Source: Antedon mediterranea
Lineage: Eukaryota > Animalia > Echinodermata
Length of the DNA stretch: 64,000 nucleotides
Assembly (NCBI RefSeq): GCF_964355755.1
Contig: NC_092676.1
Coordinates: 5,743,888 to 5,807,887 of the forward strand
Direction: 5' to 3'
Position numbers and translations under genes: made by a program. This document shows positions 1-28,674 of the stretch, one piece after another. Position 1 is the stretch's first letter, and the number at the start of each line of letters is the position of its first letter. The notes beneath the pieces were generated by a model. The model searched no databases. It was given only the letters and a program-made list of their open reading frames with translations, and was not told where the DNA came from.

Positions 1-3000
1 AAAAATTATTGATAATCTTTAAAAAATGAATAATTTATTAATAATGGTTAAATAATGTTACTGCATAATATTCAGTATTATAAATTATTTTATTATTTAT
101 TTAAAAACAAATTAAACGAAGGAATTAATATGAGTCAAAATACTTACAGATGTGTCAGTGCTGTCAATCTATCAAATACATTGGCTGGCAATGTGCTTAT
201 TTGGTTACCGTACAAATACCTTCAAAGTAAACATATATACTTATACATTTTGAATTATTTTAATAGTCTTTCAGTCAATGATAGTGACATTATCTACATA
301 GTAAATGCTGATGAGTATTCTTTATTTAGGCAAAAAGTAACTGTTAAAATGATAATGTGTTATTCTCATTATCACAAATTCTATAGAAAATTCAAAATAT
401 TTATTATCATCTTAATGTATTGATCATTTTTATGTATTTAATTAAATCTCTTTAAATAATAATCAATGAACAATTATTGATAATCTTTAAAAAATGAATA
501 ATTTATTAATAAATACTGGTTAAATAATGTTACTGCATAATATTCAGTATTATAAATTATTTTATTATTTATTTAAAAACAAATTACACGAAGGAATTAA
601 TATGAGTCAAAATACTTACAGCTGTGTCAGTGCTGTCAATCTATCAAATACATTGGCTGGCAATGTGCTTATTTGGTTACTGTTCAACCTCCTTCAAAGT
701 AAAAACAATGTACAGTAACAATTACAATATTCAAGCTGTTTGATATGTCAACTTTTATTTTCGGTATACATTTTTTTTTAATTATTTGTATAGTCTTTCA
801 GTCAATGATAGGGACATTATCTACATAGTAAATGCTGATGAGTATTCTTTAATTAGGCAAAAATTAACTGTTAAAATAATAATGTGTTATTTATTATCAC
901 AAATTCTATAGTAAATTCTAAATATTTATTATCATCTTTATGTATTTATCATTTTTATGTATTTAATTAAATCTCTATAATGACCAATGAACAATTATCG
1001 ATAATCTTTTAAAAATGAAAAATGTATGAATAATGGCCTCTTCAAGTCAGCTGTATACTGCTCTAGTACTCTTATAGATACCATTGTAAAACAAATTTGA
1101 ATTAATAAATAAATTTATTTTTTATAGCAAATTCTAATTATTATTTGTTTTATTATTATCCTAATGTTTTATTATCATTTATCATTTATTATCTACATAA
1201 TAAATACTGATGGCCTGGGTATACTTTAATTAGGCTAAAATATATGTTTTATTTTGTTATTCTCATGAACATAATTTTTATAGGAAATCATACAAATTTG
1301 TTATCATCTTTATGTATTTAATAATATAATTATTTAATTTACCTAAATAATGACCAATAAACAATTATTAATATCTTTAAACAATGAATAATGTAATGAA
1401 AATTGTTAATACTGTATGTGATTTTTTTTTAAATACTGTGTTTGTTGATCAAATTATGAATGATAAACTGCATTATATTCATTGTTATGAATTATTTCAT
1501 TTGTTTTCTTTTTAAGTAAATTAAAACAAATAAATTAATTTTAGAAAAATACTTACAGTTTTGTCAGTGCTGTCAATCTATCAAATACATTGGCTGGCAA
1601 TGTACTTATTTGGTTACTGTTCAACCTCCTTCAAAGTAAAAACAATGTACAGTAACAATTACAATATTCAAGGTGTTTGAAATGTCAACTTTTATTTTCA
1701 ATATACATTTTTGAATTATTTCTATAGTCTTTCAGTCAATGATAGGGACATTATCTACATAGTAAATGCTGATGAGTATTCTTTAATTAGGCAAAAATTA
1801 ACTGTTAAAATGATAATGTGTTATTCTCATTATCACAAATTCTATAGAAAATTCTAAATATTTATTATCATCTTAATGTATTTATCATTTTTATGTATTT
1901 AATTAAATCTCTTTAAATAATGATCAATGAACAATTATTGATAATCTTTAAAAAATGAATAATTTATTAATACTGGTTAAATAATGTTACTGCATAATAT
2001 TTAGTATTATAAATTATTTTATTATTTATTTAAAAACAAATTAAACGAAGGAATTAATATGAGTCAAAATACTTACAGCTGTGTCAGTGCTGTCAATCTA
2101 TCAAATACATTGGCTGGCAATGTGCTTATTTGGTTACTGTTCAACCTCCTTCAAAGTAAAAACAATGTACAGTAACAATTACAATATTCAAGCTGTTTGA
2201 TATGTCAGCTTTTATTTTCGGTATACATTTTTTTAAAATTATTTTGTATAGTCTTTCAGTCAATGATAGGGACATTATCTACATAGTAAATGCTGATGAG
2301 TATTCTTTAATTAGGCAAAAATTAACTGTTAAAATAATAATGTGTTATTTATTATCACAAATTCTATAGTAAATTCTAAATATTTATTATCATCTTTATG
2401 TATTTATCATTTTTATGTATTTAATTAAATCTCTATAATGACCAATGAACAATTATCGATAATCTTTTAAAAATGAAAAATGTATGAATAATGGCCTCTT
2501 CAAGTCAGCTGTATACTGCTCTAGTACTCTTATAGATACCATTGTAAAACAAATTTGAATTAATAAATAAATTTATTTTTTATAGCAAATTCTAATTATT
2601 ATTTGTTTTATTATTATCCTAATGTTTTATTATCATTTATCATTTATTATCTACATAATAAATACTGATGGCCTGGGTATACTTTAATTAGGCTAAAATA
2701 TATGTTTTATTTTGTTATTCTCATGAACATAATTTTTATAGGAAATCATACAAATTTGTTATCATCTTTATGTATTTAATAATATAATTATTTAATTTAC
2801 CTAAATAATGACCAATAAACAATTATTAATATCTTTAAACAATGAATAATGTAATGAAAATTGTTAATACTGTATGTGATTTTTTTTTAAATACTGTGTT
2901 TGTTGATCAAATTATGAATGATAAACTGCATTATATTCATTGTTATGAATTATTTCATTTGTTTTCTTTTTAAGTAAATTAAAACAAATAAATTAATTTT

Positions 3001-6000
3001 AGAAAAATACTTACAGTTTTGTCAGTGCTGTCAATCTATCAAATACATTGACTGGCAATGTACTTATTTGGTTTCTGCCCAAATCCCTTCAAAGTAAAAA
3101 CAATGTACAGTAACAATTACAATATTCAAGTTGTTTGATATGTCAACTTTTATTTTCGGTATACATTTTTTTTTAATTATTTGTATAGTCTTTCAGTCAA
3201 TGATAGGGACATTATCTACATAGTAAATGCTGATGAGTATTCTTTAATTAGGCAAAAATTAACTGTTAAAATAATAATGTGTTATTTATTATCACAAATT
3301 CTATAGTAAATTCTAAATATTTATTATCATCTTTATGTATTTATCATTTTTATGTATTTAATTAAATCTCTATAATGACCAATGAACAATTATCGATAAT
3401 CTTTTAAAAATGAAAAATGTATGAATAATGGCCTCTTCAAGTCAGCTGTATACTGCTCTAGTACTCTTATAGATACCATTGTAAAACAAATTTGAATTAA
3501 TAAATAAATTTATTTTTTATAGCAAATTCTAATTATTATTTGTTTTATTATTATCCTAATGTTTTATTATCATTTATCATTTATTATCTACATAATAAAT
3601 ACTGATGGCCTGGGTATACTTTAATTAGGCTAAAATATATGTTTTATTTTGTTATTCTCATGAACATAATTTTTATAGGAAATCATACAAATTTGTTATC
3701 ATCTTTATGTATTTAATAATATAATTATTTAATTTACCTAAATAATGACCAATAAACAATTATTAATATCTTTAAACAATGAATAATGTAATGAAAATTG
3801 TTAATACTGTATGTGATTTTTTTTTAAATACTGTGTTTGTTGATCAAATTATGAATGATAAACTGCATTATATTCATTGTTATGAATTATTTCATTTGTT
3901 TTCTTTTTAAGTAAATTAAAACAAATAAATTAATTTTAGAAAAATACTTACAGTTTTGTCAGTGCTGTCAATCTATCAAATACATTGGCTGGCAATGTAC
4001 TTATTTGGTTACTGTGCAAATACCTTCAAAGTAAAAACAATGTACAGTAACAATTACAATATTCAAGGTGTTTGAAATGTCAACTTTTATTTTCAATATA
4101 CATTTTTGAATTATTTCTATAGTCTTTCAGTCAATGATAGGGACATTATCTACATAGTAAATGCTGATGAGTATTCTTTAATTAGGCAAAAATTAACTGT
4201 TAAAATGATAATGTGTTATTCTCATTATCACAAATTCTATAGAAAATTCTAAATATTTATTATCATCTTAATGTATTTATCATTTTTATGTATTTAATTA
4301 AATCTCTTTAAATAATGATCAATGAACAATTATTGATAATCTTTAAAAAATGAATAATTTATTAATACTGGTTAAATAATGTTACTGCATAATATTTAGT
4401 ATTATAAATTATTTTATTATTTATTTAAAAACAAATTAAACGAAGGAATTAATATGAGTCAAAATACTTACAGCTGTGTCAGTGCTGTCAATCTATCAAA
4501 TACATTGGCTGGCAATGTGCTTATTTGGTTATAGTCCAACCACCTTCAAAGTAAAAACAATGTACAGTAACAATTACAATATTCAAGTTGTTTGATATGT
4601 CAACTTTTATTTTTCTTATACATTTTGAATTATTTTTTATAGTCTTTCAGTCAATGATAGGGACATTATCTACATAGTAAATGCTGATGAGTATTCTTTA
4701 ATTAGGCAAAAATTAACTGTTAAAATAATAATGTGTTATTTATTATCACAAATTCTATAGTAAATTCTAAATATTTATTATCATCTTAATGTATTTATCA
4801 TTTTTATGTATTTAATTAAATCTCTATAATGACCAATGAACAATTATCGATAATCTTTTAAAACTGAAAAATGTATGAATAATGGCCTCTTCAAGTCAGC
4901 TGTATACTGCTCTAGTACTCTTATAGATACCATTGTAAAACAAATTTGAATTAATAAATAAATTTATTTTTTATAGAAAATTCTAATTATTATTTGTTTT
5001 ATTATTATCCTAATGTTTTATTATCATTTATCATTTATTATCTACATAATAAATACTGATGGCCTGGGTATACTTTATTTAGGCTAAAATATATGTTTAT
5101 ATTTTGTTATTCTCATGAACATAATTTTTATAGGAAATCATACAAATTTGTTATCATCTTTATGTATTTAATAATATAATTATTTAATTTACCTAAATAA
5201 TGACCAATAAACAATTATTAATATCTTTAAACAATTAATAATGTAATGAAAATTGTTAATACTGTATGTGATTTTTTTTTAAATACTGTGTTTGTTGATC
5301 AAATTATGAATGATAAACTGCATAATATTCATTATTATGAATTATTTCATTTGTTTTCTTTTTAAGTAAATTAAAACAAATAAATTAATTTTAGAAAAAT
5401 ACTTACAGTGTTGTCAGTGCTGTCAATCTATCAAATACATTGGCTGGCAATGTACGTATTTTGTTAATGTACAAATACCTTCAAAGTAAAAGAAAGATAC
5501 AGTAACAATTACAATATTCAAGCTGTTTGAAATGTCAACTTTTATTTTCAATATACATTTTTGAATTATTTGTATAGTCTTTCAGTCAATGGTAGGGACA
5601 TTATCTACATAGTAAATGCTGATGAGTATTCTTTAATTAGGCAAAAATTAACTGTTAAAATAATAATGTGTTATTCTCATTATCACAAATTCTATAGCAA
5701 ATTCTATTTATTATCATCTTTATGTATTAATCATTTTTATGTATTTAATTAAATCTCTATAATGACCAATGAACAATTATCGATAATCTTTTAAAAATGA
5801 AAAATGTATGAATAATGGCCTCTTCAAGTCAGCTGTATACTGCTCTAGTACTCTTATTGATACCCTTGTAAAACAAATTTGAATTAATAAATAAATTTAT
5901 TTTTTATAGCAAATTCTAATTATTATTTGTTTTATTATTATCCTAATGTTTTATTATCATTTATCATTTATTATCTACATAATAAATACTGATGGCCTGG

Positions 6001-6830
6001 GTATACTTTAATTAGGCTAAAATATATGTTTTATTTTGTTATTCTCATGAACATAATTTTTATAGGAAATCATACAAATTTGTTATCATCTTTATGTATT
6101 TAATAATATAATTATTTAATTTACCTAAATAATGACCAATAAACAATTATTAATATCTTTAAACAATGAATAATGTAATGAAAATTGTTAATACTGTATG
6201 TGATTTTTTTTTAAATACTGTGTTTGTTGATCAAATTATAAATGATAAACTGCATTATATTCATTGTTATGAATTATTTCATTTGTTTTCTTTTTAAGTA
6301 AATTAAAACAAATAAATTAATTTTAGAAAAATACTTACAGGCGTGTCAATGCTGTCAATTTATTAAATACATTGGCTGGCAATGTACTTATTTGGTTCCC
6401 GCTCAAACTCCTTCAAAGTAAAAACAATGTACAGTAACAATTACAATATTCAAGTTGTTTGATATGTCAACTTTTATTTTCGGTATACATTTTTTTTGAA
6501 TTATTTCTATAGTCTTTCAGTCAATGATAGGGACATTATCTACATAGTAAATGCTGATGAGTATTCTTTAATTAGGCAAAAAGTAACTGTTAAAAAAGGA
6601 ATAATTTATTAATAATGGTTAAATAATGTTACTGCATAATATTCAGTATTATAAATTATTTTCTTATTTATTTAAAAACAAATTAAACGAAGGAATTAAT
6701 ATGAGTCAAAATACTTACAGTACTGTCAGTGCTGTCAATCTATCAAATACATTGGCTGGCAATGTACGTATTTGGTTCCAGCCCAAATCCCTTCAATGTA
6801 AAAGAAAGGTACATTAACAATTACAATATT
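1..6830 (-). repeat. Tandem intron+LRR-exon array of paralog A (units ~520 and ~937 bp)
   Basis: Near-identical units, each containing plus-strand atacttac-ag...gtcagtgctgtcaatctatcaaatacattggctggcaatgt...-cttcaaagt (donor, exon, acceptor on the minus strand). Variable motifs in transcript order: DLGW, SLSG, YLYI, WLDY, YLHS, DLGR, RLNS, RLNS, RLNS, YLYG. Confidence 0.93.
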
Positions 6831-7881
6831 TGATATTCTATTCATACAGGTATAGGCCTACAGTGATTGTGCTTGGGGTATATAAAGTGACCCCACAAAA
6901 TGAAATTATTTCTGATAACTCTAAGTACTAAATTTCAAATTGTCATTAGGTCATTATTACATATTTTAAAATATATATTATATATATTTTTAAATTCCAC
7001 GTTTTATAATAAACTTACAATGAAATGTTTGCACTGACTGACTTACAATTCTGTTACTGGAATATGATCATTATACTCGTTGATGGTTGCGATGTTATTA
7101 ATACTCCATGGAGGACGACATTCCACTCTGTGACCGTAAGTAGACCTCTTAGGCGCACCACATTCACAGTCGGCTGGACATTCTGCATTTGTTAAAAACA
7201 AGACAACTCGGAGATACGTCAAGAAAGGAAAAGTGAAAACTATCTTTTTCAATATATATGTAATGTTACAAATGCAATCAAATCAAATAAAATGTCTAGC
7301 TGTGACCGCTCAATTAAATATAATTCGAATCAGATAAAAAAATTAATTCATAATCATGTAAAAATAAATACTGTATAGTACAGTATATAAACAAAAGTTG
7401 AACATTAACATTTAAATCAGATTGTCTTCGAAGTTTAATAACAGTACTGTTGTTATAAACCAACAAAACAGTATAGTTTGTATGAGGCATACTGTTCAAA
7501 GACAGGGCTACATCTATTATTAAATACAGTATCAAATACCAAACAGCTAATTAATTATTATATTAAACAATTAATAAATTAAAAAAATGAAGCAATCATA
7601 CCGGGAAGGGTATTAGGATTCCAGGCGATAGTAGTAGGATCATAGTCAAAGTTGATGACGTGATTGGTAACGTTAACGTAAGTGGAGCTTCCCCTGTCAC
7701 TGTCAACACCACTGGAAAGGGTGCCACTGCCACTGCTACCACCACTGCCACTGTCACTGCCACTACCACTACCACTATCACTTTCACTGCCACCATCGCT
7801 GTCACTAAAACAGCGATAACAAGGTAATACAACCAATACAACAATACAATACAGTAGTATGTTTCCTTTTAAGATAAACAT
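148..7881 (-). CDS. LRR-GPCR paralog A, 5' part (signal peptide, LRRNT, >=10 VLR-like LRR exons); 3' end lies left of the window
   Basis: Exons, all GT-AG: 7602-7881, 7047-7182, then 72-nt exons 6719-6790, 6339-6410, 5407-5478, 4472-4543, 3952-4023, 3015-3086, 2077-2148, 1557-1628, 620-691, 148-219. Phases 1, 2, 2... join into one open frame. Same layout as complete paralog C. Confidence 0.88.
7047..7182 (-). CDS. Paralog A exon 2: cysteine-rich LRR N-terminal cap (LRRNT)
   Basis: Acceptor TGCAG|, ECPADCECGAPKRSTYGHRVEC...IPVTEL, donor TT|GTAAGT. 136 nt, phase 1->2. CPxxCxC...VxC is the LRRNT pattern. Confidence 0.88.
7602..7881 (-). CDS. Paralog A exon 1: signal peptide plus Ser/Gly/Asp-rich linker
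   Basis: MFILKGNILLYCIVVLVVLPCYRC-FSDSDGGSESDSGSGSGSDSGSGGSSGSG...AWNPNTLP. Donor G|GTATGA at 7601, phase 1. Homologous to 47488-47689 and 28168-28382. Confidence 0.85.
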
Positions 7882-8640
7882 CTTCTTAACTTAATTCACT
7901 CGTAATCAATTAATAAACTTTACTTCTGCGAGTCCGCTCAGTATATGAACAATATACTTTGTTACTATCTTTATTTACCTGTATTTATTAAACTTTTTTT
8001 AAAATATTAAACATTTAGATACCGTCACCGGATGCATTAATAAAATTATGAGTTGTTAATATTTTATAATATCTTTTTATCCATGTGTGCACAAGATTTT
8101 TAAAACACATGGACCCAGCATTGTTGAAAAGTGCTAAGTTTGATTAAAGAGATTACATTTTGTAGGTATAATCTAGACTGGGTGCTAAGCGAATAACAAA
8201 CAAATGGGAGAAGGTGGTATCTGAAAAGTTGGAAAACATTAAAAATAAACACAATTATTAATACTATAATTTTCTATATTCCTAATACTGTATAGAGGTC
8301 GTTATATTATTGCACATTTTGATTCATATCTAGATAAAACAAGCTTATGACGATTATTTTCATGTTTTTCTTTTAATTAAAGTAAACATTATTTTGTTTC
8401 AGTTTTAGGTAAAATAGGGAAGTAGTTAAAAGTAAACAATACTGATTGGTAAGCAGGAGCTGAAATTAACAGAAAAAAAATTACAGGTGTAAATCAGTGT
8501 AAGAAATAAAGTTGACGCAGGTATATCAATCACATGTGTATTTCTAATATAGATGTACAGTAGGTGTTATTATGAATTACGCATATAACATAGTGAATTT
8601 GATGAAGTATTGATCGTTGTAAACAAAGTTAAAAATATGC

Positions 8641-12434: not shown

Positions 12435-13449
12435 TCACAATGTATTAAGTGGAATCTGTACAACTGCCGGTTGACGCACTTTGCACTTAAACATATATAC
12501 AATTGTGTAAAGATAAGGATTCACTGAGGAGTTGATGGGGATGATGAATGTCGCCGCCCAAACATATATGTCATCAGGAATCGTCATCCAACTCATCTCA
12601 GAACCAATTGCCATTACTATAATCGGACCCCAGCAACAGAAATCTGTGAAAACTATTAAGCCCAGTTTTCTCGCCATTTTCAACTGTTCTTTCCTCATCT
12701 GTCGTCTATTGACAGTGGCCCCCGATCTCTTAACCGATAAGAAGATCACGAGGTAGCTCACTGTTATTACAATGAACCCGATTCCGTTAAATACAACAAA
12801 CATGGCGACTGCATACTCCCAGCCTTGCCAATGACTTTTTGTCAGAGGTAGTGCGAGGCACACACTCTCTTTGCCATAGTAATTATCTCCAAAATATGAA
12901 ATATCTGTTATTGGAAGAAAACTCAGCACAATCCAAAATAGCCATGCCAAGCCGATAATGCTTCTACATTTTGTACGATTGAGGCGTTTTGTACTAAATG
13001 GATTAACAATGTTAATAGCTCGATCCACACTCAGCAGCATCAGTGTAAACACTGAGCATTGCCCAGAGATTGTAGAAATTGCCCCGGCAAAGCTGCAAAG
13101 AAAACTGCTCTTCCAATCCCTTGCAGCTTTAGCATACCGTCCACGATAGTGTATGTCCGCACTCGCAATGATGATCAAGTAGACTGCCATTAGCAAGTCG
13201 GACACGGCAAGATTAGTAATGAGTGTGGTCTGGACCTTATTTACATTGTTACCTAAATCATTATCCTTTTTGAACTTTCGTGATATGATGACAATCAAAT
13301 TGCCAATGACTGATGACACCCCAATGATCATCATCAATACACGGAGAACATCGCTTTTTAGCAAGTCTTCACAAGAAGCAAATGCATCAACGGGTTCGCA
13401 GACATCAATGTCACCAACAAGGCAACACAGACGAGAGAAATCGGAGTAC
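12435..13449 (-). CDS. Paralog B terminal exon: LGR type-C hinge plus rhodopsin-class 7TM domain
   Basis: Acceptor CTTAG| at 13450. YSDFSRLCC...CEPVDAFASCEDLL hinge, NLAVSDLLM (TM2), SVDRA (DRY-like), CLALP (ECL2), FTDFCCWGPI (TM6), PINSSVNPYLY (NPxxY). Intact to TGA. Confidence 0.93.
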
Positions 13450-14031
13450 CTAAGAGAGTAAAGTAACAGCAAATGTATGTGATCAGTTACTTTTTTTAAA
13501 GCCCAAATTGTTACTCTTCGAAAATTCGAGGATTTTCAGAATAAATTTATTTGATATAAAGATTGCGGTACACCACGTATATTAGTTCTGAAAAGATCTG
13601 TCGAGTTTCTCTATGTTACGATGAATCTGCGTATGATCGTCCTCATGAGTGGGAGGGATTGTGGGAGGGATAATATAGAAGAGCAAACATGATATAAACA
13701 TTTGATTTCGCCATGCAAACCTTCAAACAATGTAAATTTATTTGTAACTTTCGGATAAATTATGAATAATAAGATACTATTCGTGTATAATTATATAGCA
13801 TAATAATACAGCGAAGATAAACATGCCTTAGATTGTAAATTAACTAGTAATTTTAATATATTTATTTAAATTGAACATAATTAAAACATTTACCATATTC
13901 AATTTATCAAATTTAACTTACTTAACTAATTTGACATTCAATAAAATTATTTACTGTACATATAGCAATAAGAATAAAACAGTAGCTGCATAAGTTTGTA
14001 TGAGCATCTCTCATACTTTTATCATACTTAC

Positions 14032-14103
14032 AATTCTTTTAAATTGTTCAGTTCTTCAAAAGTTCTATCTCTGTAATTCTGTAAGTTGTTCTTTTGTAAC
14101 CAT
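14032..14103 (-). CDS. Paralog B last (divergent, non-array) LRR exon
   Basis: 72 nt, AG|...|GTAAG, WLQKNNLQNYRDRTFEELNNLKEL. Nearly identical to 36357-36428 in C. Confidence 0.85.
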
Positions 14104-15544
14104 CTATAGGATAACATATTAGAAATAAATTAAGAATAGGCTAATACATTTTGAAAAAAGTAAAGTTTTCAAACTATGGTTTATGTATGCTTTTCTTGAA
14201 GAAAATACATGAACTATGTATATTTTAACTGTTATGAATCCTCTTTATCTTTATCTTTGAATTTGGTCTGTATATTTTTGTATTGTTTTTAAGAGGGCCT
14301 CTTCAAGTCAGCTGTACTGCTGTAGTACTGTTAGAGCTACCCTTGTAAAACAAATTTGAATGAATAAATAAATATATTCATATTTTATTTATCTGTACAT
14401 AACACTATTCTAAATTCAAGACCCCTGGTGAAAACCAAATACACTTTATTTGTTTACTTGTTTGGAAGTTTTCCATTCAAATTCAGTGGTTGAATACATC
14501 CTTTGTGTTCGAAGTTCTTATTATTATTGTATGTTTATATAAATAAATTAAATTATTTTATTATTTATTTAAAAACAAATTCAACGAAAGAATCAATATG
14601 AGTCAAAATACTTACAGGTGTGTCAGTGCTGTCAATCTATCAAATACATTGACTGGCAATGTACTTATTTGGTTGCTGTTTAAACTCCTTCAAAATAAAA
14701 GAAAGGTACAGTAACAACTACAATATTCAAGTTGTTTGAAATGTCAACTTTTATTTTCAAAATACATTTTGAATGATTGTAATAGTCTTTCAGTCAATGA
14801 TAGGGACATAATCTACATAGTAAGTGCTGATAAGTATTCTCTAATTAGGCAAAAATTAACTGTTAAAATAATAATGTGTTATTCTCATTATCACGAATTC
14901 TATAGAAAATTCTAAATATTTATCATCTTAATGTATTTATCATTTTTATGTATTTAATTAAATCTCTTTAAATAATGATCAATGAACAATTATTGATAAT
15001 CTTTAAAAAATGAATAGTTTATTAATAATGGTTAAATAATGTTACTGCATAATATTCAGTATTATAAATTATTTTATTATTTATTTAACAATAAATTAAA
15101 CGAAGGAATTTATAAGAGTAAAATACTTACAGTAATGTCAGTGCTGTCAATCTATCAAATACATTGACTGGCAATGTACTTATTTGGTTACTGCCCAAAA
15201 ACCTTCAAAATAAAAGAAAGGTACAGTAACAATTACAATATTTAAGCTGTTTGAAATGTCAACTTTTATTTTCGATATACATTTTTTAATTATTTCTATA
15301 GTCTTTTAGTCAATGAGGGTCATTATCTACATAGTAAATGCTGATGAGTATTCTTTAATTAGGCAAAAATTAACTGTTAAAATAATAATGTGTTATTCTC
15401 ATTATCACAAATTCTATAGAAAATTCTTAATATTAATTATCATCTTAATGTATTTATCATTTTTATGTATTTAATTAAATCTATTTAAATAATGATCAAT
15501 GAAGAATTATTGATAATCTTTAAAAAATTAATAATTTATTAACA

Positions 15545-17272
15545 AAAATTTTTCCTGGACAAATCAGACGATTGATTAATAAACTAAAGTCAAAGAAGTC
15601 TAGTCACCCTGATGACTTGCCAATTAAACTTATAAAAGAATTCGCCTTTGAAATTGCTACCCCACTTGCCCATATTTTTAATTGTTGTCTTAATGAAGGT
15701 GTATTTCCCGAGTTATGGAAGTTAGCAACAGCCATTCCTGTTCCAAAAGTTCCTAATGTGACATCATTTCAAGACCCCAGGCCAATTTCACTTACCCCCA
15801 TCTTTGCCAAGTTGTTTGAGTCATTCCTTACTGATTGGGTGACTAGTGACATTCATCAACATTTAGATATTAAACAATTTGGTTGCCGTAAAGGCTCATC
15901 TACTAGCCATTATCTTGTGGACATGATTCAGTCTGTAATTAGTGATATTGAAAAAGGTGATTCTTTTGTGGATATTTGTGCCGTTGATTTTACGAAGGCC
16001 TTCGACCGAATTGACCATACGGTCATTGTTAGAAAGCTTGTCGACATCGGAGTGAGAACATCTATTATTCCCACCATCTGTAGCTTTCTGACGGATCGTA
16101 AAATAAATACTAAACTTAGTTCATCCTTTTCCCCTTATGCCAACATCACATGTGGGATTCCACAGGCTACAAAGCTTGGGCCAATTTTGTTTCTTATATT
16201 AGTCAATGATATCTCTATGGAAGGCTGCAGATGGTGGAAGTATGTTGATGATCTCACTCTTGGTGACACTGTTAAACATGGTAATGCCCCTAAACTTCAA
16301 TCTTGTCTTGATGACCTTACTGAGTGGTGTGATACAAATCACATGGTCCCTAAACCCTCTAAGTGTCATATCATGAGAGTTAATTTTTTGAAAAGAAATA
16401 TTCCCCCTCCTAATTATTACCTTAGCGGTACAACACTTAATGTGGTTTCGTATATAAAGCTCCTTGGACTTATAATCCAGGATGACTTGAAATGGGATAA
16501 TAATGTCAGTGACATGGTAAAAAGAGCATCCAAAAGGTTGTATACGTTATATATCCTTAGAAGGGCCAATGTACCAGTTCATGATATGATATCCGTTTAT
16601 GTTTGTTATATTCGCCCAATCTTAGAATACGCCTGCCCTGTTTGGCATGGAAGCATCAATAAGGCCCAAATGTCGACCATTGAAAGAGTGCAAAAGAGAG
16701 TTTTACGTATTATTCTGGGTCCCGCTTTCCTTACGTATGATTCAGCTCTTGAGCTTACTGATATGACCACTCTCGCATCCAGACGAGAGACGTTGATTCA
16801 AAAATTTGGAGAAAGGCTCTTGAAATCGGAATTGTACAGAACTATTTTGCCCGACTACCGCATTATTAATAGAGAGCTTAGATCAACCACGGTAGATAAA
16901 CCCCTAATTAATATACCTGTTTGCAGAACTAACCGTCTTAAGACTTCGCCTGCCCTTACCATAAGTAGAATCCTTAATTCAAACAGTACCTGATCACGCT
17001 GAAGATGGCTATGTTATAAATATTTACATATATTGGCCTATGCATTTGTATATAAATTTTGTAATCTTTTTAACATAACATAATTTTATTTTTTTAACTG
17101 ATTTTTTCAAATTTTTTAATATTTTGTATAAATTTTTGTATTTTTTTAAATGTTTCTGTTTCCATATATTTATATATATATTTTTGTAAATCAACAATTT
17201 CAGCCTTCGGGCTGCATGTTTTTTATTGTATAAACCTGAATAAATAAAATAAATAAATAAATAAATAAATAA
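15545..17272 (+). mobile_element. 5'-truncated non-LTR retrotransposon (LINE, CR1/L2-like group) in an intron of paralog B
   Basis: RT ORF 15572-16993, T-rich 3' UTR and (TAAA)n tail at ~17238-17272. The host intron consensus is interrupted at ~15542 and resumes at ~17380. Confidence 0.9.
15572..16993 (+). CDS. Reverse transcriptase (LINE ORF2 C-terminal part)
   Basis: 473 aa with RPISLT, QFG, DFTKAFD, GIPQATKLGP, YVDD, KLLG and RPILEYACPVW motifs. No endonuclease domain (truncated). Confidence 0.93.
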   Translation: MINKLKSKKSSHPDDLPIKLIKEFAFEIATPLAHIFNCCLNEGVFPELWKLATAIPVPKVPNVTSFQDPRPISLTPIFAKLFESFLTDWVTSDIHQHLDIKQFGCRKGSSTSHYLVDMIQSVISDIEKGDSFVDICAVDFTKAFDRIDHTVIVRKLVDIGVRTSIIPTICSFLTDRKINTKLSSSFSPYANITCGIPQATKLGPILFLILVNDISMEGCRWWKYVDDLTLGDTVKHGNAPKLQSCLDDLTEWCDTNHMVPKPSKCHIMRVNFLKRNIPPPNYYLSGTTLNVVSYIKLLGLIIQDDLKWDNNVSDMVKRASKRLYTLYILRRANVPVHDMISVYVCYIRPILEYACPVWHGSINKAQMSTIERVQKRVLRIILGPAFLTYDSALELTDMTTLASRRETLIQKFGERLLKSELYRTILPDYRIINRELRSTTVDKPLINIPVCRTNRLKTSPALTISRILNSNST

Positions 17273-17382
17273 AGGCCAACAGCCATAAGTTGCGTAATAA
17301 AATGCATAGTGATACCGGACCGACAGACCGACAGACCGACCGACCGACATAGGGAACTATAGAGTCGCGTCCACGCGACTAA
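17272..17382 (+). mobile_element. Short Helitron/HINE-like element with (GACC/GACA)n core and terminal hairpin
   Basis: aaggccaacagcc...gaccgacagaccgacagaccgaccgaccgac...tagagtcgcgtccacgcgactaa (stem agtcgcgt/acgcgact). Confidence 0.55.
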
Positions 17383-20300
17383 TAATGGTTAAATAATGTT
17401 ACTGCATAATATTCAGTATTATAAATTATTTTATTATTTATTTTAAAACAAATTAAACGAAGGAATTAATATGAGTCAAGATACTTACAGCTCTGTCAAT
17501 GCTGTCAATCTATCAAATACATTGGCTGGCAATGTACTTATTTGGTTACCCACCAAATCCCTTCAGAGTAAAAACAATGTACAGTAACAATTACAATATT
17601 TAAGCTGTTTGATATGTCAACTTTTATTTTCGAAATACATTTGGAATGATTGTAATAGTCTTTCAGTCAATGATAGGGACATTATATACACAGTAAATGC
17701 TGATGAGTATTCTTGAATTAGGCAAAAATTAACTGTTAAAATAATAATGTGTTATTCTCATTATCACAAATTCTATAGAAAATTCAAAATATTTATTATC
17801 ATCTTAATGTATTTATCATTTTTATGTATTTAATTAAATCTCTTTAAATAATGACCAATGAAAAATTATTGATAATCTTTAAAAAATAAATAATTTATTA
17901 ATAATGGTTAAATGTTACCGCATAATATTCAGTATTATAAATTATTTTACTATTTATTTAAAAACAAATTCAACGAAGGAATCAATATGAGTCAAAATAC
18001 TTACAGGTGTGTCAGTGCTGTCAATCTATCAAATACATTGGCTGGCAATGTACTTATTTGGTTCCAGTTCAAAGTCCTTCAAAATAAAAGAAAGGTACAG
18101 TAACAACTACAATATTCAAGTTGTTTGAAATGTCAACTTTTATTTTCGAAATACATTTTGAATAATTGTAATAGTCTTTCAGTCAATGATAGGGACATTA
18201 TCTACAGTAAATGCTGATAAGTATTCTTTAATTAGGCAAAAATTAACTGTTAAAATAATAATGTGTTATTCTCATTATCACAAATTCTATAGAAAATTCA
18301 AAATATTTATTATCATCCTAATGTATTTATCATTTTTATGTATTTAATTAAATCTCTTTAAATAATGACCAATGAAAAATTATTGATAATCTTTAAAAAA
18401 TAAATAATTTATTAATAATGGTTAAATGTTACCGCATAATATTCAGTATCATAAATTATTTTATTATTTATTTAAAAACAAATTCAACGAAGGAATCAAT
18501 ATGAGTCAAAATACTTACAGGTGTGTCAGTGCTGTCAATCTATCAAATACATTGGCTGGCAATGTACTTATTTGGTTACTGTACAAATACCTTCAAAATA
18601 AAAGAAAGGTACAGTAACAATTACAATATTCAAGCTGTTTGATATGTCAACTTTTATTTTCGAAATACATTTGGAATGATTGTAATAGTCTTTCAGTCAA
18701 TGATAGGGACATTATCTACATAGTAAATGTTGATAAGTATTCTTTAATTAGGCAAAAATTAACTCTTAAAATAATAATGTGTTATTCTCATTATCATAAA
18801 TTCTATAGAAAATTCTAAATATTTATCATCTTAATGTATTTATCAATTTTATGTATTTAATTAAATCTCTTTAAATAATGATCAATTAACAATTATTGAT
18901 AATCTTTAAAAATGAATAATTTATTAATAATGGTTAAATAATGTTACTACTATTATGAATTGTTTTATTATTTATTTAAAAACAAATTTAACGAAGGAAT
19001 TAATATGAGTCAAAATACTTACAGGTGTGTCAGTGCTGTCAATCTATCAAATACATTGGCTGGCAATGTACTTATTTGGTTACTGTACAAATACCTTCAA
19101 AGTAAAATAAAGGTACAGTAACAATTACAATATTCAAGCTGTTTAGAATCTCAACTTTTATTTTCGATATACATTTTTGAATTATTTTGTATAGTCTTTC
19201 AGTCAGTGATAGAGACATTATCTACATAGTAAATGCTGATGAGTATTCTTTAATTAGGCAAAAATTAACTCTTAAAATAATAATGTGGTATTCTCATTAT
19301 CACAAATTCTATAGCAAACTCTAAATATTTATTATCATCTTAATGTATTTATCATTTTTATGCATTTAATTAAATCTCTTTAATTAATGATCAATGAACA
19401 ATTATTGATAATCTTTAAAAAATGAATAATTTATTAATAAGGGATAAATAATGTTACTACTGTTATGAATTGTTTTATTATTTATTTAAAAACAAATTAA
19501 ACGAAGGAATCAATATGAGTCAAAATACTCACAGGTGTGTCAGTGCTGTCAATCTATCAAATACATTGGCTGGCAATGTACTTATTTTGTTACTGTACAA
19601 ATCCCTTCAAAGTAAAAACAATGTACAGTAACAATTACAATATTCAAGTTGTTTGATATGTCAACTTTTGTTTTCATATACATTTTTGAATTATTTTAAT
19701 AATCTTTCAGTCAATGATAGGGACATTATCTACATAGTAAATGCTGATGAGTACTTTTAATTAGGCAAAAATTAACTGTTACAATAATAATGTGTTATTT
19801 ATTATCACATTCTATAGTAAATTCTAAATATTTATTATCATCTTAATGTATTTATCATTTTTATGTATTTAATTAAATCTCTTTAAATAATGATCAATTA
19901 ACAATTATTGATAATCTTTAAAAAATGAATAATTTAATAAGTATGATTAAATAATGTTACAGCTTAATATTCAGTATTATGAATTATTTGATTATGTATT
20001 TAAAAACAAATTACACGAAGGAATTAATATGAGCAAAATACTTACAGTTCTGTCAGTGCTGTCAATCTATCAAATACATTGGCTGGCAATGTACTTATTT
20101 GGTTACGCCCCAAATCCCTTCAAAGTAAAAATAATGTACAGTAACAGTTACAATATTCAAGCTGTTTGATATGTCAACTTTATTTTTCATATACATTTTG
20201 AACTATTTTAATAGTCTTTCAGTCAATGGTAGGGACATTATCTACATAGTAAATGCTGATGAGTACTTTTAATTAGGCAAAAATTAACTGTTACAATAAT

Positions 20301-21719
20301 AATGTGTTATTTATTATCATTCTATAGTAAATTCTAAATATTTATTATCATCTTAATGTATTTATCATTTTTATGTATTTAATTAAATCTCTTTAAATAA
20401 TGATCAATTAACAATTATTGATAATCTTTAAAAATGAATAATTTATTAATAATGGTTAAATAATGTTACTACTATTATGAATTGTTTTATTATTTATTTA
20501 AAAACAAATACAACGAAGGAATTAATATGAGTCAAAATACTTACAGCCATGTCAGTCCTGTCAATCTATCAAATACATTGGCTGGCAATGTACTTATTTG
20601 GTTACGCCCCAAATCCCTTCAAAGTAAAACAATGTACAGTAAAAATTACAATATTAAAGCTGTTTGTCAACTATTATTTTCATATACATTATGTTATCGT
20701 CTTTCAGTCAATGATAGGGACAAAAATCTTCATAGTAAATACTGATGAGTATACTTTAATTAGGCTAAAATAAAGTGTAAAAATAAGAAAGTTTTATTCT
20801 CATATAAATACAATTTTTATAGGAAATTCTAAATATTTGTTATCATCTTTAATGTATTTAATAAAATAATAATTAGATCTCGTTAAATAATGGCAGATCG
20901 AGTAATTATTTTTATTATCTTTAAAAAGGAATAATTTATTTATAATGGTTAGATATGTTAGGCCTATATTATTACTCATTCTGATTGAGAGGGTTACACT
21001 ACTATAAGAAAACGAATTGTGCATGTCGTAGGGCCCCTCGGAAGAGCAGTTTTTATATTATTTCTACCCTACTGAAAGAAAACGAAATAAATAATTAATA
21101 AATATGTGGTGCACTCTCTCCGAACTAGTATTTCTTCCCTTTCCGATTAATAGTATATTGTACAAAATAAGACAGCTCAAAATGACGATAGTCGGTTTCA
21201 TTGCAATGAGTATCGACGTGTTCACGTTTATATTTATTTTTCGTTTTACAAACATTGAGATAACAATTATCTTCATCTACATCTTCTACTCCTCCCCACT
21301 GACTGTATCTGGAATAACACGTATTTTATAAACAATTGTCTAGGCATTGACCGCGAACCAGATAAATAAGTGTGAAATTTCTAGAAAACTAGATGTATTT
21401 CAATTTTGTTTTACCATTAAAAATGATCGGCATTATCCAGCAAGCTATTTCACGAAAACTTATTCAAAATTGTACATATAGAAACTGCTATCATCCATAA
21501 TTAAATAGTGATCAAATACAATGGTTTTTATCTTTATGGAAAGTGTTTATGTGCTCATCATTTTTTCTCAAACATTCTGTTTCTGCCTCTGTTCCATTTT
21601 ATTTCATTATAGCCTCACAACTGGGACTGCGATAAGATATTGTTAACAATATAGGAACTTGACCTTACCTCAGTCACAGAAAGAAAATCGTATTACCCAT
21701 AAAACACTGAACCGGAAAC

Positions 21720-22127
21720 AAAACTAAGATATCTCTATTAATAGAGATATCTCTATTAATAGAGATATCTTAGTTTTAAATAGATATCTCTATTAATAGA
21801 GATATCTCTGTTAATAGAGATATCTCTATTAATAGAGATATCTTAGTTTTAAATAGATATCTCTATTAATAGAGATATCTCTGTTAATAGAGATATCTCT
21901 ATTAAAAACTAAGATATCTTAATTTTAATAGAGATATCTTAGTTTTAAAAGAGATATCTCTATTAATAAAGATATAGAGATATCTCTGTTAATAGAGATA
22001 TCTCTATTAAAAACTAATATATCTTAGTTTTAAATAGAGATATCTTAGTTTTTAATAGAGATATCTTAGTTTTTAATAGAGATATCTCTATTGATAGAGA
22101 TATCTTAGTTTTAAACTAAGATATCTT
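21720..22127. repeat. Palindromic AT-rich satellite (AGAGATATCTCT / TATTAATA units)
   Basis: About 20 copies of self-complementary agatatct cores spaced by tattaata or tagttttaa. Confidence 0.88.
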
Positions 22128-23082
22128 TATTTCCGAATAAATGACAGCTTGGCGCGCCATAAAAATGATCAAATAACAACTTTCGTAGCGTACTTATATA
22201 TCGGTCGTAGTAGACACCATTTATAATTGTAAATAGAGCAAGCAACAGAAATAATCGATAATATAAACAGTGAAGGTGTTTCCCTGGTAGGCATACCAGG
22301 CCTCCTATAGTAACATTGAATCGCACCTAAATTTGATTAAATGATTAATAAATAGCATAAATAATTAGTTCAATTAGCCTCCTATAGTAAAATTGAATCG
22401 CACCTAAATAGCATAAATAATTAGTTAAATTGATAAAACAAATTGTATTTCACGTAAAGTAAAGGCCTTTATAATTGATTAGTTGAATATCTAAAACAAA
22501 TAAATTGTAGTTCACGATCGATTCAGTTGAATCGCTAAATTTACATTGTAGTTCACGTAAAAGTAAAGGCCTTCAATAATAGTTAAATTACTAAATAAAT
22601 TGTAGTTCACGTAAAGTAAATTTCTTAAATCAATATAACTGATTAGTTAAATATCTAAAACAAATTAATTGATTAATTAATTAATTAATATTTTGTATTT
22701 AATATTGAATGTCGCCACCAACGGCCATGTTGCCGGAAGTGACGGACCCGGAATCCCGTTGAACAGCGCGAGTGTGTGAAAACAAAATAACCCTGTGATA
22801 TCCACAAATTTCGATAGGTTACGCAAAATTTTGTCGTTGTAAAAGATAAAAATGGAACAATAGCGTAGTACTGAAAACAATTTTATCAAATCTACGTTTC
22901 GCGGTACATCTAAGATAGATAATGTAGGTATCCAAGGCGGAGATTTGTACGTCAGAATTAACCATAATTTATAGGCCTATATAGATAAAATGAATATTAG
23001 CAAAACAATGTAGGCCTACAGTACAAATTGCAATATTCATTTTGATATGTCAACTTTTTATTTTAAATTTTCTTTTTTTTTT

Positions 23083-23146
23083 GACGACGACGACGACAAC
23101 AATAATAATGATGATGATGATGATGATGATGATGACGATGACGATG
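23083..23146. repeat. Compound trinucleotide microsatellite (GAC/AAT/GAT)
   Basis: gacgacgacgacgacaacaataataatgatgatgat... Confidence 0.9.
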
Positions 23147-24060
23147 AATATCCTTTTAAATAATGCCCAAGGATCAATTATTATTATTTTTAATTAAAAA
23201 AAAAGAATAATTGTTGAATATTTTACAAATGATTTAAAAAATATATTGATGATGTATTGATCACATAATGAAATGATACAATGCATACAATTCATATAAA
23301 TTATCTATTTAAAAAATAAATTAAACAAAAAATTAAATATTGCACCCCTTAAACAATTTAAAAAAAAAAACATGTTGTTGTTGAATATGCCATTTTAATG
23401 TCAATAATAATAAAAAATTCTTTTTTTATTTATCCTCATTTTTTATGGTTTTTGGAGCACAATACATATTTAATAATTAATATGAGCAAAATACTTTCAG
23501 TTTTCTCAATTTATTGATAATGTTATTTTACTAATGCTTTTAAAATCTTTACTGTTTGTATAAATGTTTACATTATAAGATGATTAAATGTATATCATAC
23601 ATTATTATAACTTAATATATTACCGTATTTCTTTTTAAATCAAATTAAACAAAGAAATTAATATGAGCAAAATACTTACAGCCATGTCAATGCTGTCAAT
23701 CTATCAAATACATTGGCTGGCAATGTACTTATTATGTTATTCCTCAAATACCTTTAAAGAAAACACAATGTACATTAACAATTACAATATTCAAGCTGTT
23801 TGATATGTCAGCTTTTATTTTCGGTATACATTTTTAATTATTTTTATAGTTTTTCAGTCAATGATATTTTCTACAGAGTACATGCTGATGTGTATATTTT
23901 AAGTAGGCAAAATAAAGTGTGTTAAAAATATAAAGTATTAATAAAAAAAAATAATAATAATAATAATTAATATAATCATTATTATATATTTTAAAATACA
24001 TATTATATATATTTTTTATTCCATTTTAAATAATAAATGAAATGTTTGCACGGAAAATAA

Positions 24061-25722
24061 CTTACTTCTAGAATTTTTACTCGATGGTATATACAGTTGG
24101 TTCGTACTTTCGGTACTGATTTTAACCACCTGATGTAACCCTGTTTACTAATTAAATTGAGTTAGATAATTAGTTATTGACGATTAAAACGAATTTAGGT
24201 TCAACGATTTGCCCCAAATAGGGGTGTTTTCCAATCGTGGTATACATTGTCTAATGAATGTCCATGGAAAAATACCCGCATACAATAATACGAGGATGAT
24301 TCGCATTTTCCTATCTCCTCCTACGATAATTGTTTTTAATGGCTGAAAACGGGTTGAACAGCTCGAGTACAGTATCATAATGTTGAAGACAGGCCGATTT
24401 TCTTTAAAAAATACTATTTTGATAGATTTAAACGTTTATACAAATGTATTGATTTGCGATGAATGGAACATTCCAATCTCTGTTCGACAAGTTTTTCTCT
24501 GTTCCACAAGTGTCTATTCCCTCAGGCGTCGTAAAGGCAAGTACTGTATACTCATAACAGAAATTCGATCCATTTTTTTTTTCAATCTGTACTGCAGAGG
24601 TTGGAGATAGATTTTTTTAACGGATAATGAGCTAGCGTTTTCAGTCGCCCTATATTATGTACAAATCTTTATTATTGCAGTTAAACCACCCACATCATCA
24701 CCCTTCCCTCACTGGCATGAGTAGTAGTAGTAACTAATTAAGTTGAGTTAGATAATTTAATATTTATTGACGATTAAATCGAATTTATGATTTGCCCCGA
24801 ATGGAGGTGGTTTTCACAAATTGTTTTACATTATAAACATATACACGTCGTAGTGATGTATCGTTACATGTATACGTAAGGGCAAAATTCGGTAAATCGC
24901 GCCTTACTTCTAGAATTTTTACTCGATGGTATATACAGTTGGTTCGTACTTTCGGTACTGATTTTAACCACCAGATGTAACCATGTTTACTAATTAAATT
25001 AAGTTAGATAATTAGTTATTGACGATTAAAACGAATTTAGGTTCAACGATCTGCCCCAAATAGGGGTGTTTTCCAATCGTGGTATACATTTTCTAATGAA
25101 TGTCCATGGAAAAATACCCGCATACAATAATACGAGGATGATTCGCATTTTCCTATCTCCTCCTACGATAATTGTTTTTAATGGCTGAAAACGGGTTGAA
25201 CAGCTCGAGTACAGTATCATAATGTTGAAGACAGGCCGATTTTCTTTAAAAAATACTATTTTGATAGATTTAATATACGTTTATACAAATGTATTGATTT
25301 GCGATGAATGGAACATTCCAATCTCTGTTCGACAAGTTTTTCTCTGTTCCACACACAAGTGTCTATTCCCTGAGGCGTCGTAAAGGCAAGTACTGTATAC
25401 TCATAACAGAAATTCGATCCATTTTTTTTTTCAATCTGTACTGCAGAGGTTGGATATAGATTTTTTTTAACGGATAATGAGCTAGCGTTTTCAGTCGCCG
25501 TATATTATGTACAAATCTTTATTATTGCAGTTAAACCACCCACATCATCACCCTTCCCTCACTGGCATGAGTAGTAGTAGTAACTAATTAAGTTGAGTTA
25601 GAAAATTTAATATTTATTGACGATTAAATCGAATTTATGATTTGCCCCGAATAGAGGTGGTTTTCACAAATTGTTTTACATTATAAACATATACACGTCG
25701 TAGTGATGTATCGTTACATGTA
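24061..25722. repeat. Direct tandem duplication of a ~0.81-kb segment (offset 842 bp)
   Basis: 24061-24872 matches 24903-25722 with few differences. This explains the duplicated short ORFs 24184-24378 and 25026-25220. Confidence 0.92.
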
Positions 25723-26135
25723 CTGTACACTTTGAATCGACTAGGACGGTGATAGTTTCAACAAAGTATTACATCGCAATGTTTTACTGTGTTTAGTGGT
25801 ATATTATTTGTAAAACATGAAAACAATTAATATTTCCTTACTAAATGGATAAAGAATATATTTAAAAATTGTTCCTCCTTGCACCCATCCTCTTCCCCAT
25901 CCCTCAACCCTAATGCCACATACAAAACACAACTTATTAAGTTTGTTTAAATTTGACTTAAACAATTTTAAACAGTTTCTCTTGCGGAAGGAATTCCCAG
26001 GGTGCTAATTTTAGTTGAGTACATAAATCAAAGTGTCTATTTATTCGTTCCTGCGGTACGTACATTTGAAATCGCCAATTTTTTAACGCTGAAATTATTA
26101 TGTATTCAAGAACCATCTGTGGGCACGACCTAGAA

Positions 26136-26167
26136 GGTACGCGAGCGAAGCGAGCGTACCATCTAGT
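26136..26167 (+). mobile_element. Helitron-like 3' terminus
   Basis: GC-rich hairpin ggtacgc-gagcgaagcga-gcgtacc followed by CTAG|T. 5' end not located. Confidence 0.45.
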
Positions 26168-26302
26168 AAATTAAATTAACAATCACAGTAGAGTTAACAT
26201 AAAAATAAATACTGTATAGTACAGAATAAAAGCAAAAGTTAAAAATTAAAATTATGAATTTAATCAGATTGCCTTCGAAGTTTAATAATAGTGTAGTCCT
26301 AC

Positions 26303-27972: not shown

Positions 27973-28674
27973 TACTGTTTTTTTAAAAACTAACAAAACA
28001 TTTTGTATAATATAGAGCCTATTTTCAAAGAAAGGGCTAAATATATTATTAGACACAGTATCAAATACCAAACAGCTAATTATGAAAATAACACACTTTC
28101 TGATACTGATAGCATAATTATTATACCTATCAACATAACGTAAATTTAAAGAATGAAGCAATCATACCGGGAAGGGTATCACTATTCCATGCGATAGTAA
28201 TATTATCATAGTCAGACTCGATGACTTGATAAATTGTAAAGTTAACATCAGTTGAGTTGATAAATTCAATACTACTATAATCACTTTCACTGCCACCATC
28301 GCTGCCACTGTCACAGCGATAACAAGGTAATACAACCAATATAACAATACAATAGTAATATGATTCCTTTTAAGATGAACATCTTCTTAACTCAATTCAC
28401 TCGTAATCAATTTAATAAACTTTACTTCTGCGAGTCCACTCAGCATATGAACAATATACTTTGTTTCATATCTTCATTTACCTGTATTTATTAAACTTTT
28501 TTAAATATTAAACATTTAGATACAGTCACCGGATGCATTAATAAAATTCTGAGTTGTTAATATTTTATAATATTTTATCCATATTATATGAGCACAAGAT
28601 TTTTAAAACACATGGACCCGTGTTACTCATAATTGTTGAAAAGTGCTAAGTTTAAAAATAGAGATAAGTATAAG

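Follow-up and report, generated by a model that had tools for sequence, protein, structure and literature searches.

How can two neighbouring genes be almost letter for letter alike in their introns and yet differ strongly in the exons that these introns separate? The question is raised by a 64,000-nucleotide (nt) stretch of the genome of the crinoid Antedon mediterranea (contig NC_092676.1, forward-strand positions 5,743,888 to 5,807,887; the whole stretch is called the window below). The window is AT-rich (21-36% G+C), and self-comparison together with exon mapping placed in it three tandem genes, here called A, B and C, all on the minus strand. Their predicted plan starts with a signal peptide and a Cys-rich cap, continues with an array of 72-nt exons that each encode a single leucine-rich repeat (LRR), and ends in a rhodopsin-type seven-transmembrane (7TM) domain. 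The answer that we consider probable is that these tandem receptor genes undergo concerted evolution combined with diversifying selection and with the exchange of variable patches.

Exon and intron divergence between genes A and C

The 5' ends of genes A and C (5037-7900 and 44964-47790, respectively) were aligned globally, and the mismatches were scored feature by feature. In gene A the minus-strand exon for the first repeat, LRR1 (6719-6790; 72 nt, phase 1-1), differs from its counterpart in C (46606-46677) at 11/72 positions, and the exon for the second repeat, LRR2 (6339-6410, minus strand; counterpart 46227-46298), differs at 13/72. Intron 3, which separates them (6411-6718), has 3/307 mismatches and one 1-nt gap, and intron 2 has 3/255 mismatches and likewise one 1-nt gap. 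Exon 2 (7047-7182, 136 nt), which encodes the Cys-rich N-terminal cap (CPADCEC...VEC), is identical to C 46933-47068 (0/136), while intron 1 (7183-7601) carries a single mismatch in 419 nt. Over 6339-7601 this amounts to 24/144 mismatches in the LRR exons versus 7/1117 in the rest (odds ratio 32, Fisher p=5.2e-18), and the difference persists when the exons are set against introns 1-3 alone (7/981, p=7.6e-17).

A sequence-only reading of this DNA had described 6411-7601 and 46299-47487 as almost base-identical, had taken the usual exon/intron conservation to be inverted and to provide an internal control, and had named a pairwise alignment as the check. The alignment bore this out: intron divergence lies far below exon divergence, so that the introns do work as a neutral internal control, the mismatches cluster in the variable codons, and near-identity applies to everything outside the LRR exons, the range that had been given itself including the LRR1 exon. 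The residues quoted for LRR1 and LRR2 agree exactly with our translations (DLGWNQIRTLPANVFDRLTALTV and SLSGNQISTLPANVFNKLTALTR in A, DLSYNRISTLPANVFDRLTALTH and LLYGNQISTWPANVFDRLTALTK in C). They had been said to differ at the variable positions of the repeat, and this is where the mismatches concentrate: exon positions 2-4, 8-13 and 68-70 differ at 9/12 bases in LRR2 and 7/12 in LRR1, against 4/60 of the other bases in each exon.

The shortened intron that had been called diagnostic is indeed shared by the two genes, the string GTTAAAAAAGGAATAATTT having exactly two copies in the window (6589-6607 and 46476-46494; 0 in 100 shuffles). Intron 3 is 308 nt long in A and 307 nt in C, other array introns measuring ~448 or ~865 nt. 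The extent of the near-identity had been drawn too narrowly, however, because the near-identical block runs from ~5730 to 7648 in A and from ~45618 to 47534 in C. Its edges are sharp, with A/C identity of ~80% upstream of 7769 and of 92-95% in the arrays, and gene B matches introns 1 and 2 at only 68-86%.

Within this block the differences are gathered in two islands. The island around LRR2 (6341-6463) holds 15 differences in 123 nt, 13 of them in the exon and the others at intron positions -45 and -53, and the island around LRR1 (6708-6839) holds 16 in 132 nt, 11 in the exon and the others at intron positions +11, -14, -18, -21 and -49. The rest of the block, 1664 nt, has 5 differences. Both islands include a silent change in a Leu codon, at exon position 62, and this position, together with intron positions -14, -18, -45 and -53, is variable across the whole array. 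Several of the hypervariable (HV) codons, which are defined below, differ between A and C at 2-3 bases, and the non-HV parts of the islands diverge at 6/111 and 9/120 positions (~5-7%), a level typical of unrelated units. Because silent and intronic differences accompany the HV differences, the islands appear to differ in ancestry from the recently homogenised block around them. The linked differences tell against the earlier view that the A/C differences are point replacements made in place; the fast replacement of binding residues that it had proposed stands for the family as a whole, in the HV codon counts given below, and as in-place change is not supported for A and C after their recent exchange.

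Variable codons and patches in the repeat array

The pattern seen in LRR1 and LRR2 of A and C is not special to them and recurs in all 35 LRR units of the window. Each of the 35 exons is 72 nt long and open in frame, lies on the minus strand in a common splice context (borders ...TTGAAG and GTAAGT) between similar introns, and reads xLxxNQISTLPANVFDRLTALTx, with a Leu codon split across each intron; read as a motif, all 35 fit the typical 24-residue LRR periodicity LxxLxLxxNxIxxLPxxxFxxLxxL. The 54-nt core of these exons carries 0-4 substitutions. Most core sites show a per-site diversity of ~0, whereas it reaches 0.5-0.75 at exon positions 2-3, 8-9, 11 and 68-70 and 0.3-0.4 at positions 4, 10, 12 and 13, so that codons 1, 3, 4 and 23 are hypervariable and near saturation. 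Read across the intron the motif is L-T-x followed by L-x-L-x-x-N, and the HV codons occupy four of the five x positions of LxxLxLxxN. These positions are described as forming the beta-strand and turn of the concave, usually ligand-binding face of LRR proteins (PMC3138743), and the four HV residues of each repeat are accordingly predicted to face the ligand.

Variation in the HV codons is largely uncoupled from the history of the surrounding DNA. Among the 330 of 561 unit pairs that have alignable flanks, the HV difference is 5.5-7.2 of 12 bases in every bin of flank identity, the 99-100% bin included, and flank divergence correlates with HV difference at a Spearman rho of 0.23 versus 0.52 for the core. 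A tree was built from the flanking introns of 34 units, the unit at 148 in gene A having too little flank to be included. On it codons 1, 3 and 4 change 19, 24 and 22 times, compared with shuffled means of 21.1, 23.9 and 22.1. The clearest single case lies within gene A, where 737-2192 and 3132-4587 align without gaps over 1456 nt and are identical save for 8 bases, all of which fall in HV codons 1, 3 or 4 of two LRR exons (P=1.5e-15).

Selection or a raised mutation rate could each concentrate differences in a few codons, and the silent sites inside the variable patch serve to tell them apart. Between paralogues, the HV codons show a nonsynonymous difference of 0.565 per site, whereas the framework codons show 0.058 for silent and 0.026 for replacement differences. 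The Nei-Gojobori pS within HV codons (0.385) was discarded as inflated by multi-step paths, and comparisons of codons for the same residue and counts of third bases were used instead. The three bases of Leu codon 2, which lies between HV codons 1 and 3, read T35, T35 and G34/A1 over the units. In two-fold codons the third base is fixed by position, at T43:C1 in codons 1 and 4 versus T1:C25 in codon 3 (p=1e-16), so that codons 1 and 4 write Tyr as TAT but codon 3 writes it as TAC; Asn, His, Asp and Ser follow the same rule. Of the 105 bases in second position at codons 1, 3 and 4, 49 are A, 50 G, 4 T and 2 C (purine in 99/105). Stop codons are absent from the HV codons, where 6.9 would be expected (P=0.001), and 114/140 HV residues are Y, S, G, D, H, R, N or W. 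Since the silent sites within the patch are invariant, the local mutation rate is not raised and the excess is confined to nonsynonymous differences, and since the third bases of HV codons are almost frozen, the diversity was made by first- and second-base, that is replacement, changes, starting from an ancestral unit common to all. Untemplated hypermutation is thus unlikely, and the codon counts point to diversifying selection as the likely cause, favouring polar and aromatic residues for binding while the scaffold stays fixed.

The arrays also suggest how variants spread. The 12-nt patch AGGTTGAACAGT, which encodes RLNS, is identical in the units that start at 2077, 1557 and 620 in gene A and at 44250 in gene C, while codon 23 differs among them. 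The flanks of the unit at 1557 are identical over 500/500 nt to those of the unit at 3952, which has another patch, YLHS. Whole patches thus move between units, and since there is hardly any other place where the units differ, a normally sized conversion tract would alter only the variable codons. We also observed that the three consecutive gene A exons at 2077, 1557 and 620 (620-2148) all carry RLNS, their higher-order-repeat counterparts at 4472, 3952 and 3015 carrying WLDY, YLHS and DLGR; patch spread can therefore also lower diversity. Runs carrying two organism labels give the LRR units a summed word depth 10-100x that of the unique introns, a hint of many more units rather than a copy number.

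Receptor identity, transcripts and gene layout

The output domain of these genes was identified from the 371-codon minus-strand open reading frame (ORF) at 34907-36022 in gene C, which matches Pfam 7tm_1 with E=4e-33 and belongs to the rhodopsin family; the corresponding ORF of gene B (12435-13535) matches the same family with the same E value. In a sequence search of the PDB the solved chains nearest to this domain were RXFP1 (1.2e-46), FSHR (1e-34), LHCGR (2e-32) and TSHR (9e-30), adrenergic receptors reaching only ~1e-14. Pfam was scanned over contiguous exons, and the LRR and cap assignments rest on motifs and on paralogues: two models from the same species, P0008 and P0064, hold cap, LRRs, hinge and 7TM in a single protein, which supports the LRR plus 7TM architecture. 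The best solved chains for P0064 were LRRC15, IGFALS, RXFP1 and LGR4/5. Judged by these likenesses, the window genes encode receptors akin to the G-protein-coupled receptors with leucine-rich repeats (LGRs), with an LRR ectodomain predicted to be joined to a rhodopsin-type 7TM domain.

In the databases the 7TM ORF matches Antedon mediterranea G-protein-coupled receptors (GPCRs) named 'GRL101-like', at up to ~100% identity. Type C LGRs, to which GRL101 belongs, are defined by LDLa modules in PMC8286064, where true GRL101 has LDLa repeats and is a single orthologue in each ambulacrarian species. Exons 1 and 2 gave no Pfam match and no LDLa when scanned as contiguous exons rather than as part of a whole spliced protein, and the gene model leaves no room for LDLa modules because the coding sequence (CDS) begins at exon 1. 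GRL101 orthology was rejected on these two grounds, the lack of LDLa and the single-copy state of GRL101 in ambulacrarians as given there, and for the same reasons we regard the database name as an automatic label only.

The closest named database protein, P0003, is a 299-amino-acid (aa), 7TM-only model whose first residue is a Met inside the 7TM exon. Among longer proteins related to the 7TM domain the best were 55-61% identical, and none is a full-length product of the window genes. Exon 1 had no homologues among the longer predicted proteins, exon 2 gave only 3 weak partial matches (39-45% identity) in the representative library, and neither exon is contained in any predicted protein of the collections searched, from which the LRR ectodomain of these genes appears to be missing.

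Splicing was looked for in contigs of run X5, which comes from a different sample and whose RNA status is guessed; three of its joints fall precisely on introns of the gene models. One X5 contig joins 7182 to 7602 across intron 1, linking exon 1 to exon 2, with 29 letters on its shorter side. A second joint, 5478 to 6344, spans intron 4 with 42 letters on the shorter side and C-type letters, and a single contig joins 35920 to 36356 (cut +1), from the last LRR exon to the 7TM exon, where the shorter side of 29 letters falls below the 31-letter rule. A further X5 joint, 5466 to 5406 with 11 letters between, was considered as a possible LRR-LRR junction of another family member and could not be assigned. 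One X5 contig with a C-like intron 4 carries a third version of LRR2 codon 23 (6341-6343), neither that of A nor that of C, which may reflect allelic variation or another paralogue; the spliced X5 contig has the C version. Some stretches, for example 6847-7028 and 36698-37474, have no contig cover in X5, X6 and X8, and this was not used as evidence.

Gene C could be modelled completely, as 20 exons on the minus strand at 34907-47689 with a CDS of 2580 nt (859 aa), no internal stops and GT-AG borders at every intron. Exon 1, again with a signal peptide and a Ser/Gly/Asp-rich stretch as in gene A, lies at 47488-47689 and the cap exon at 46933-47068; 15 hypervariable LRR exons follow from 46606 to 37799, then a 75-nt (37036-37110) and a 72-nt LRR exon (36357-36428), both divergent from the 15 near-clonal ones, and finally a large last coding exon (34907-35921) that holds the Cys-rich hinge and the 7TM domain together. 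In gene A, also on the minus strand, exon 1 (7602-7881), identified by translation and by tblastn with exon 1 of C, contains the start codon, the signal peptide and a Ser/Gly/Asp-rich stretch. Beyond LRR1 and LRR2 its array occupies 148-5478, with minus-strand exons starting at 5407, 4472, 3952, 3015, 2077, 1557, 620 and 148 (each +71), and after 10 LRR exons the gene is truncated by the left edge of the window. Exon 1 of A is longer than that of C by 78 nt, in frame and inside a Ser/Gly/Asp-rich repeat that follows the signal peptide (~7717-7794 versus C 47602-47603), and six extra A/C substitutions cluster next to this length difference, at 7649-7716.

Gene B, the more diverged middle copy (12435-28382, minus strand), has 10 hypervariable LRR exons from 14616 to 23680 and a last LRR exon at 14032-14103 ahead of the 7TM ORF at 12435-13535. 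The frames of the hypervariable exons and of the 7TM ORF are open. Its exon 1 (28169-28382) matches in two overlapping frames (28382-28323 and 28354-28169), and tblastn found no match in gene B to the cap exon or to the 75-nt LRR exon. The gene looks degenerate or damaged, and it could be a pseudogene that still acts as a conversion donor. A 2.3-kb intron of its array contains, on the opposite strand, a 489-codon ORF with a reverse-transcriptase domain (15524-16993, plus strand; Pfam RVT_1, E=2.6e-17), likely a non-LTR retroelement insertion.

Other repeats are scattered through the window. An element of ~85 nt (88-91% alike) is common to the long (~865-nt) array introns and to the intron that, in B and C, precedes the last LRR exon, with copies at 5815-5901, 14296-14378, 36619-36703 and in other long array introns; its summed word depth in run X1 is 4728 versus ~150 beside it, and it may be a dispersed repeat or a relic exon. 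A tandem duplication of ~820 nt (97.8%; 24061-25722) and two inverted-repeat pairs (88-93%; 26303-26548 with 27716-27972, and 30945-31143 with 31848-32052) are found upstream of gene B and in its long first intron, and also downstream of gene C; they are probably transposon remnants. The gene-poor right third of the window has no open frame of at least 130 codons and carries tandem-repeat blocks (units of ~100-300 nt, 70-90% alike) at 51499-52693, 55210-55898 and 62203-63402. A search of the whole window against Rfam gave 0 matches.

Explanations and known systems

The account that we favour combines several steps. Unequal crossing-over and gene conversion would keep the 72-nt LRR exons and the intervening introns near-identical, and diversifying selection would keep the four predicted ligand-facing codons of each repeat different; both steps are likely. 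We further infer that the 5' ends of A and C owe their likeness to a recent exchange of ~1.9 kb, and that the LRR1 and LRR2 exons inside the block either escaped it or were afterwards replaced by short tracts that came from other units. The alphabet of the variable codons would have been built by nonsynonymous point changes fixed by selection, and the proteins may be diversified recognition receptors, chemosensory or immune, that signal via G proteins.

Part of this evidence would fit a history in which A and C were made identical very recently and the binding codons of LRR1 and LRR2 were then replaced in place by untemplated point mutation under strong positive selection. Across the family HV replacement differences exceed silent ones about tenfold, the frozen third base implies that diversity arose through first- and second-base point changes, and the window holds no donor unit for the LRR1 and LRR2 exons. 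We nevertheless judge this history unlikely, because it would demand 24 fixed changes in 144 nt against ~0.3% nearby, several of them two or three to a codon, and because it does not account for the linked silent and intronic differences, several at array-wide variable sites, for the excess of non-HV divergence in the islands over the remaining block, or for the movement of the RLNS patch as a whole. Programmed or targeted mutation at the variable patches, whether by germline or somatic hypermutation or by cassette assembly of the lamprey kind, would explain why differences are limited to a few bases in otherwise perfect repeats and why the HV residues resemble the make-up of binding sites, and the word depth over LRR units, though not a count, hints at many potential donors. 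A raised rate would however show at the silent sites in the patch (exon positions 5, 6 and 7 and the third bases), which are invariant; transversions are about as frequent as transitions among 32 differences, with no deaminase-like bias; and every unit is a full exon bearing splice sites, unlike an incomplete germline gene flanked by cassettes. We regard such a mechanism as extremely improbable.

That the introns are conserved because they are functional, in splicing control or as hosts of embedded RNAs, while the exons merely drift, is very unlikely for other reasons. The intron parts adjoining LRR exons are similar in all units and are covered to at least 95% by contigs from the runs of a second organism, but introns 1 and 2, which are unique, are just as identical between A and C and much less alike in gene B, Rfam gave no match anywhere in the window, and exon variation that is codon-specific, spares silent sites and produces no stops is not drift. 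Highly repetitive arrays with perfect repeats of up to 1456 nt also invite the suspicion of an assembly artefact, in which repeat units were mis-joined or two haplotypes placed in tandem, and contigs of the likely source sample are not countable as independent support. We give this equally little credence, since the near-identity is sharply bounded and extends over only ~1.9 kb, the layout of the array and the upstream DNA are not the same in A and C, the differences respect the reading frame and specific codons, and the X5 run, from another sample, has contigs that match the region, spliced joints included.

Several observations weigh against concerted evolution with selection and patch exchange. 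Selection was read from paralogues of one assembly. The four A/C island sequences have no donor in the window, where the nearest other unit differs at 6-33/144 positions. A weak correlation links HV distance to flank divergence (Mantel-type p=0.013), and codon 23 is partly linked to its flank, changing 19 times on the flank tree compared with a shuffled mean of 23.4 (3/300 shuffles were as low); the tree itself is a quick one that ignores recombination. The RNA support amounts to three joints from the single run X5, two of them with only 29 letters on the shorter side, and no X5 joint connects the hypervariable array to the 75-nt exon, a link that is inferred.

A bolder proposal, which we put forward only tentatively, is that these genes are an undescribed class of hypervariable-LRR GPCRs forming a crinoid repertoire of immune or chemosensory receptors, in which single-LRR cassettes, probably far more abundant in the genome than the 35 of the window, trade four-residue patches by templated micro-conversion. 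The cassettes could also be mixed by exon skipping, since all are 72 nt long, in phase 1-1 and with the same splice sites. LGR-type receptors are known to serve a few hormones and growth factors, and a clonal framework with four near-saturated concave positions per repeat, rich in Tyr, Ser, Gly, Asp, His, Arg, Asn and Trp, points to many different ligands. In that case the family, found in a basal echinoderm, would add a new example of receptor diversification encoded in the germline. Such genes are probably under-annotated in echinoderm genomes, because no searched protein contains exon 1 or exon 2 and the closest named one is the 7TM-only model P0003. The locus is in addition an unusually clean natural experiment on gene conversion versus selection, the silent sites in the 12-nt patch providing a built-in control for mutation rate.

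The nearest relatives in architecture are the LGRs (RXFP1/2, GRL101 and the glycoprotein-hormone receptors), with which the window genes share a 7TM domain whose closest matches are RXFP1, FSHR, LHCGR and TSHR, a Cys-rich hinge before TM1 and, as predicted, an LRR ectodomain. LGR genes are reported to encode one LRR per exon (PMC8286064), as the window genes do. The window genes differ in that no LDLa was found, in having up to 17 LRRs, of which 15 are near-clonal with four HV positions each, and in forming tandem multi-gene arrays. No description of hypervariable LRR-GPCRs in echinoderms was found in the open-access full-text literature; the evolutionary pattern is already known in kind, and it is its setting, a hypervariable LRR-GPCR family, that we did not find described.

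The closest parallel for the pattern is the peak of divergence in duplicates under gene conversion, described for exon 5 of the red and green opsin genes, where flanking introns of low divergence surround a sharp peak at the specificity residues that is read as selection opposing homogenisation; the same source notes that gene conversion shuffles variation in MHC, resistance (R)-gene and immunoglobulin families (PMC3924837). In the window, too, flanks are less diverged than the selected sites, ancestry is mosaic and nonsynonymous differences are in excess, as judged from paralogues only. Unlike the opsin case, the window has dozens of peaks, each repeat unit contributing two, and the exon-intron modules that carry them recur inside single genes as well as from gene to gene; its patches also move between units. 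Introns are likewise more alike than the exons for binding or active surfaces in MHC genes, through intron homogenisation, and in the accelerated exons of venom phospholipase A2 (PLA2) and conotoxin genes. Those are single-exon effects between alleles or paralogues, whereas in the window one and the same gene contains an array of repeated cassettes.

Highly variable NLRs and LRR resistance genes of plants resemble the window genes in that variation falls on the concave x residues of LxxLxLxx and clustered genes exchange sequence (PMC3138743, PMC8226289, PMC3924837). The window genes differ from plant R genes in being animal genes with a GPCR output instead of a kinase or NB-ARC domain, with an intron after every repeat and a far more uniform framework. 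The variable lymphocyte receptors (VLRs) of lampreys and hagfish are built from serial LRR modules of 24 residues each, in which the framework is fixed while the concave residues are hypervariable and often Tyr, Ser, Asp, Asn or Trp, and their genes are assembled somatically from cassettes. The likeness lies in these modules, framework and concave residues, and the difference in that each window unit is a complete, spliceable germline exon, set in gene C in an open model of 859 aa. Kinship of the LRR framework with VLRs was considered and found unsupported: among the 60 best solved chains for P0064 none is deposited as a VLR, the only related entry being the engineered LGR4-VLR fusion 4qxe. 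If the window genes do form a crinoid repertoire, they would be a functional parallel to VLRs and plant R genes, but one wired directly to a 7TM domain.

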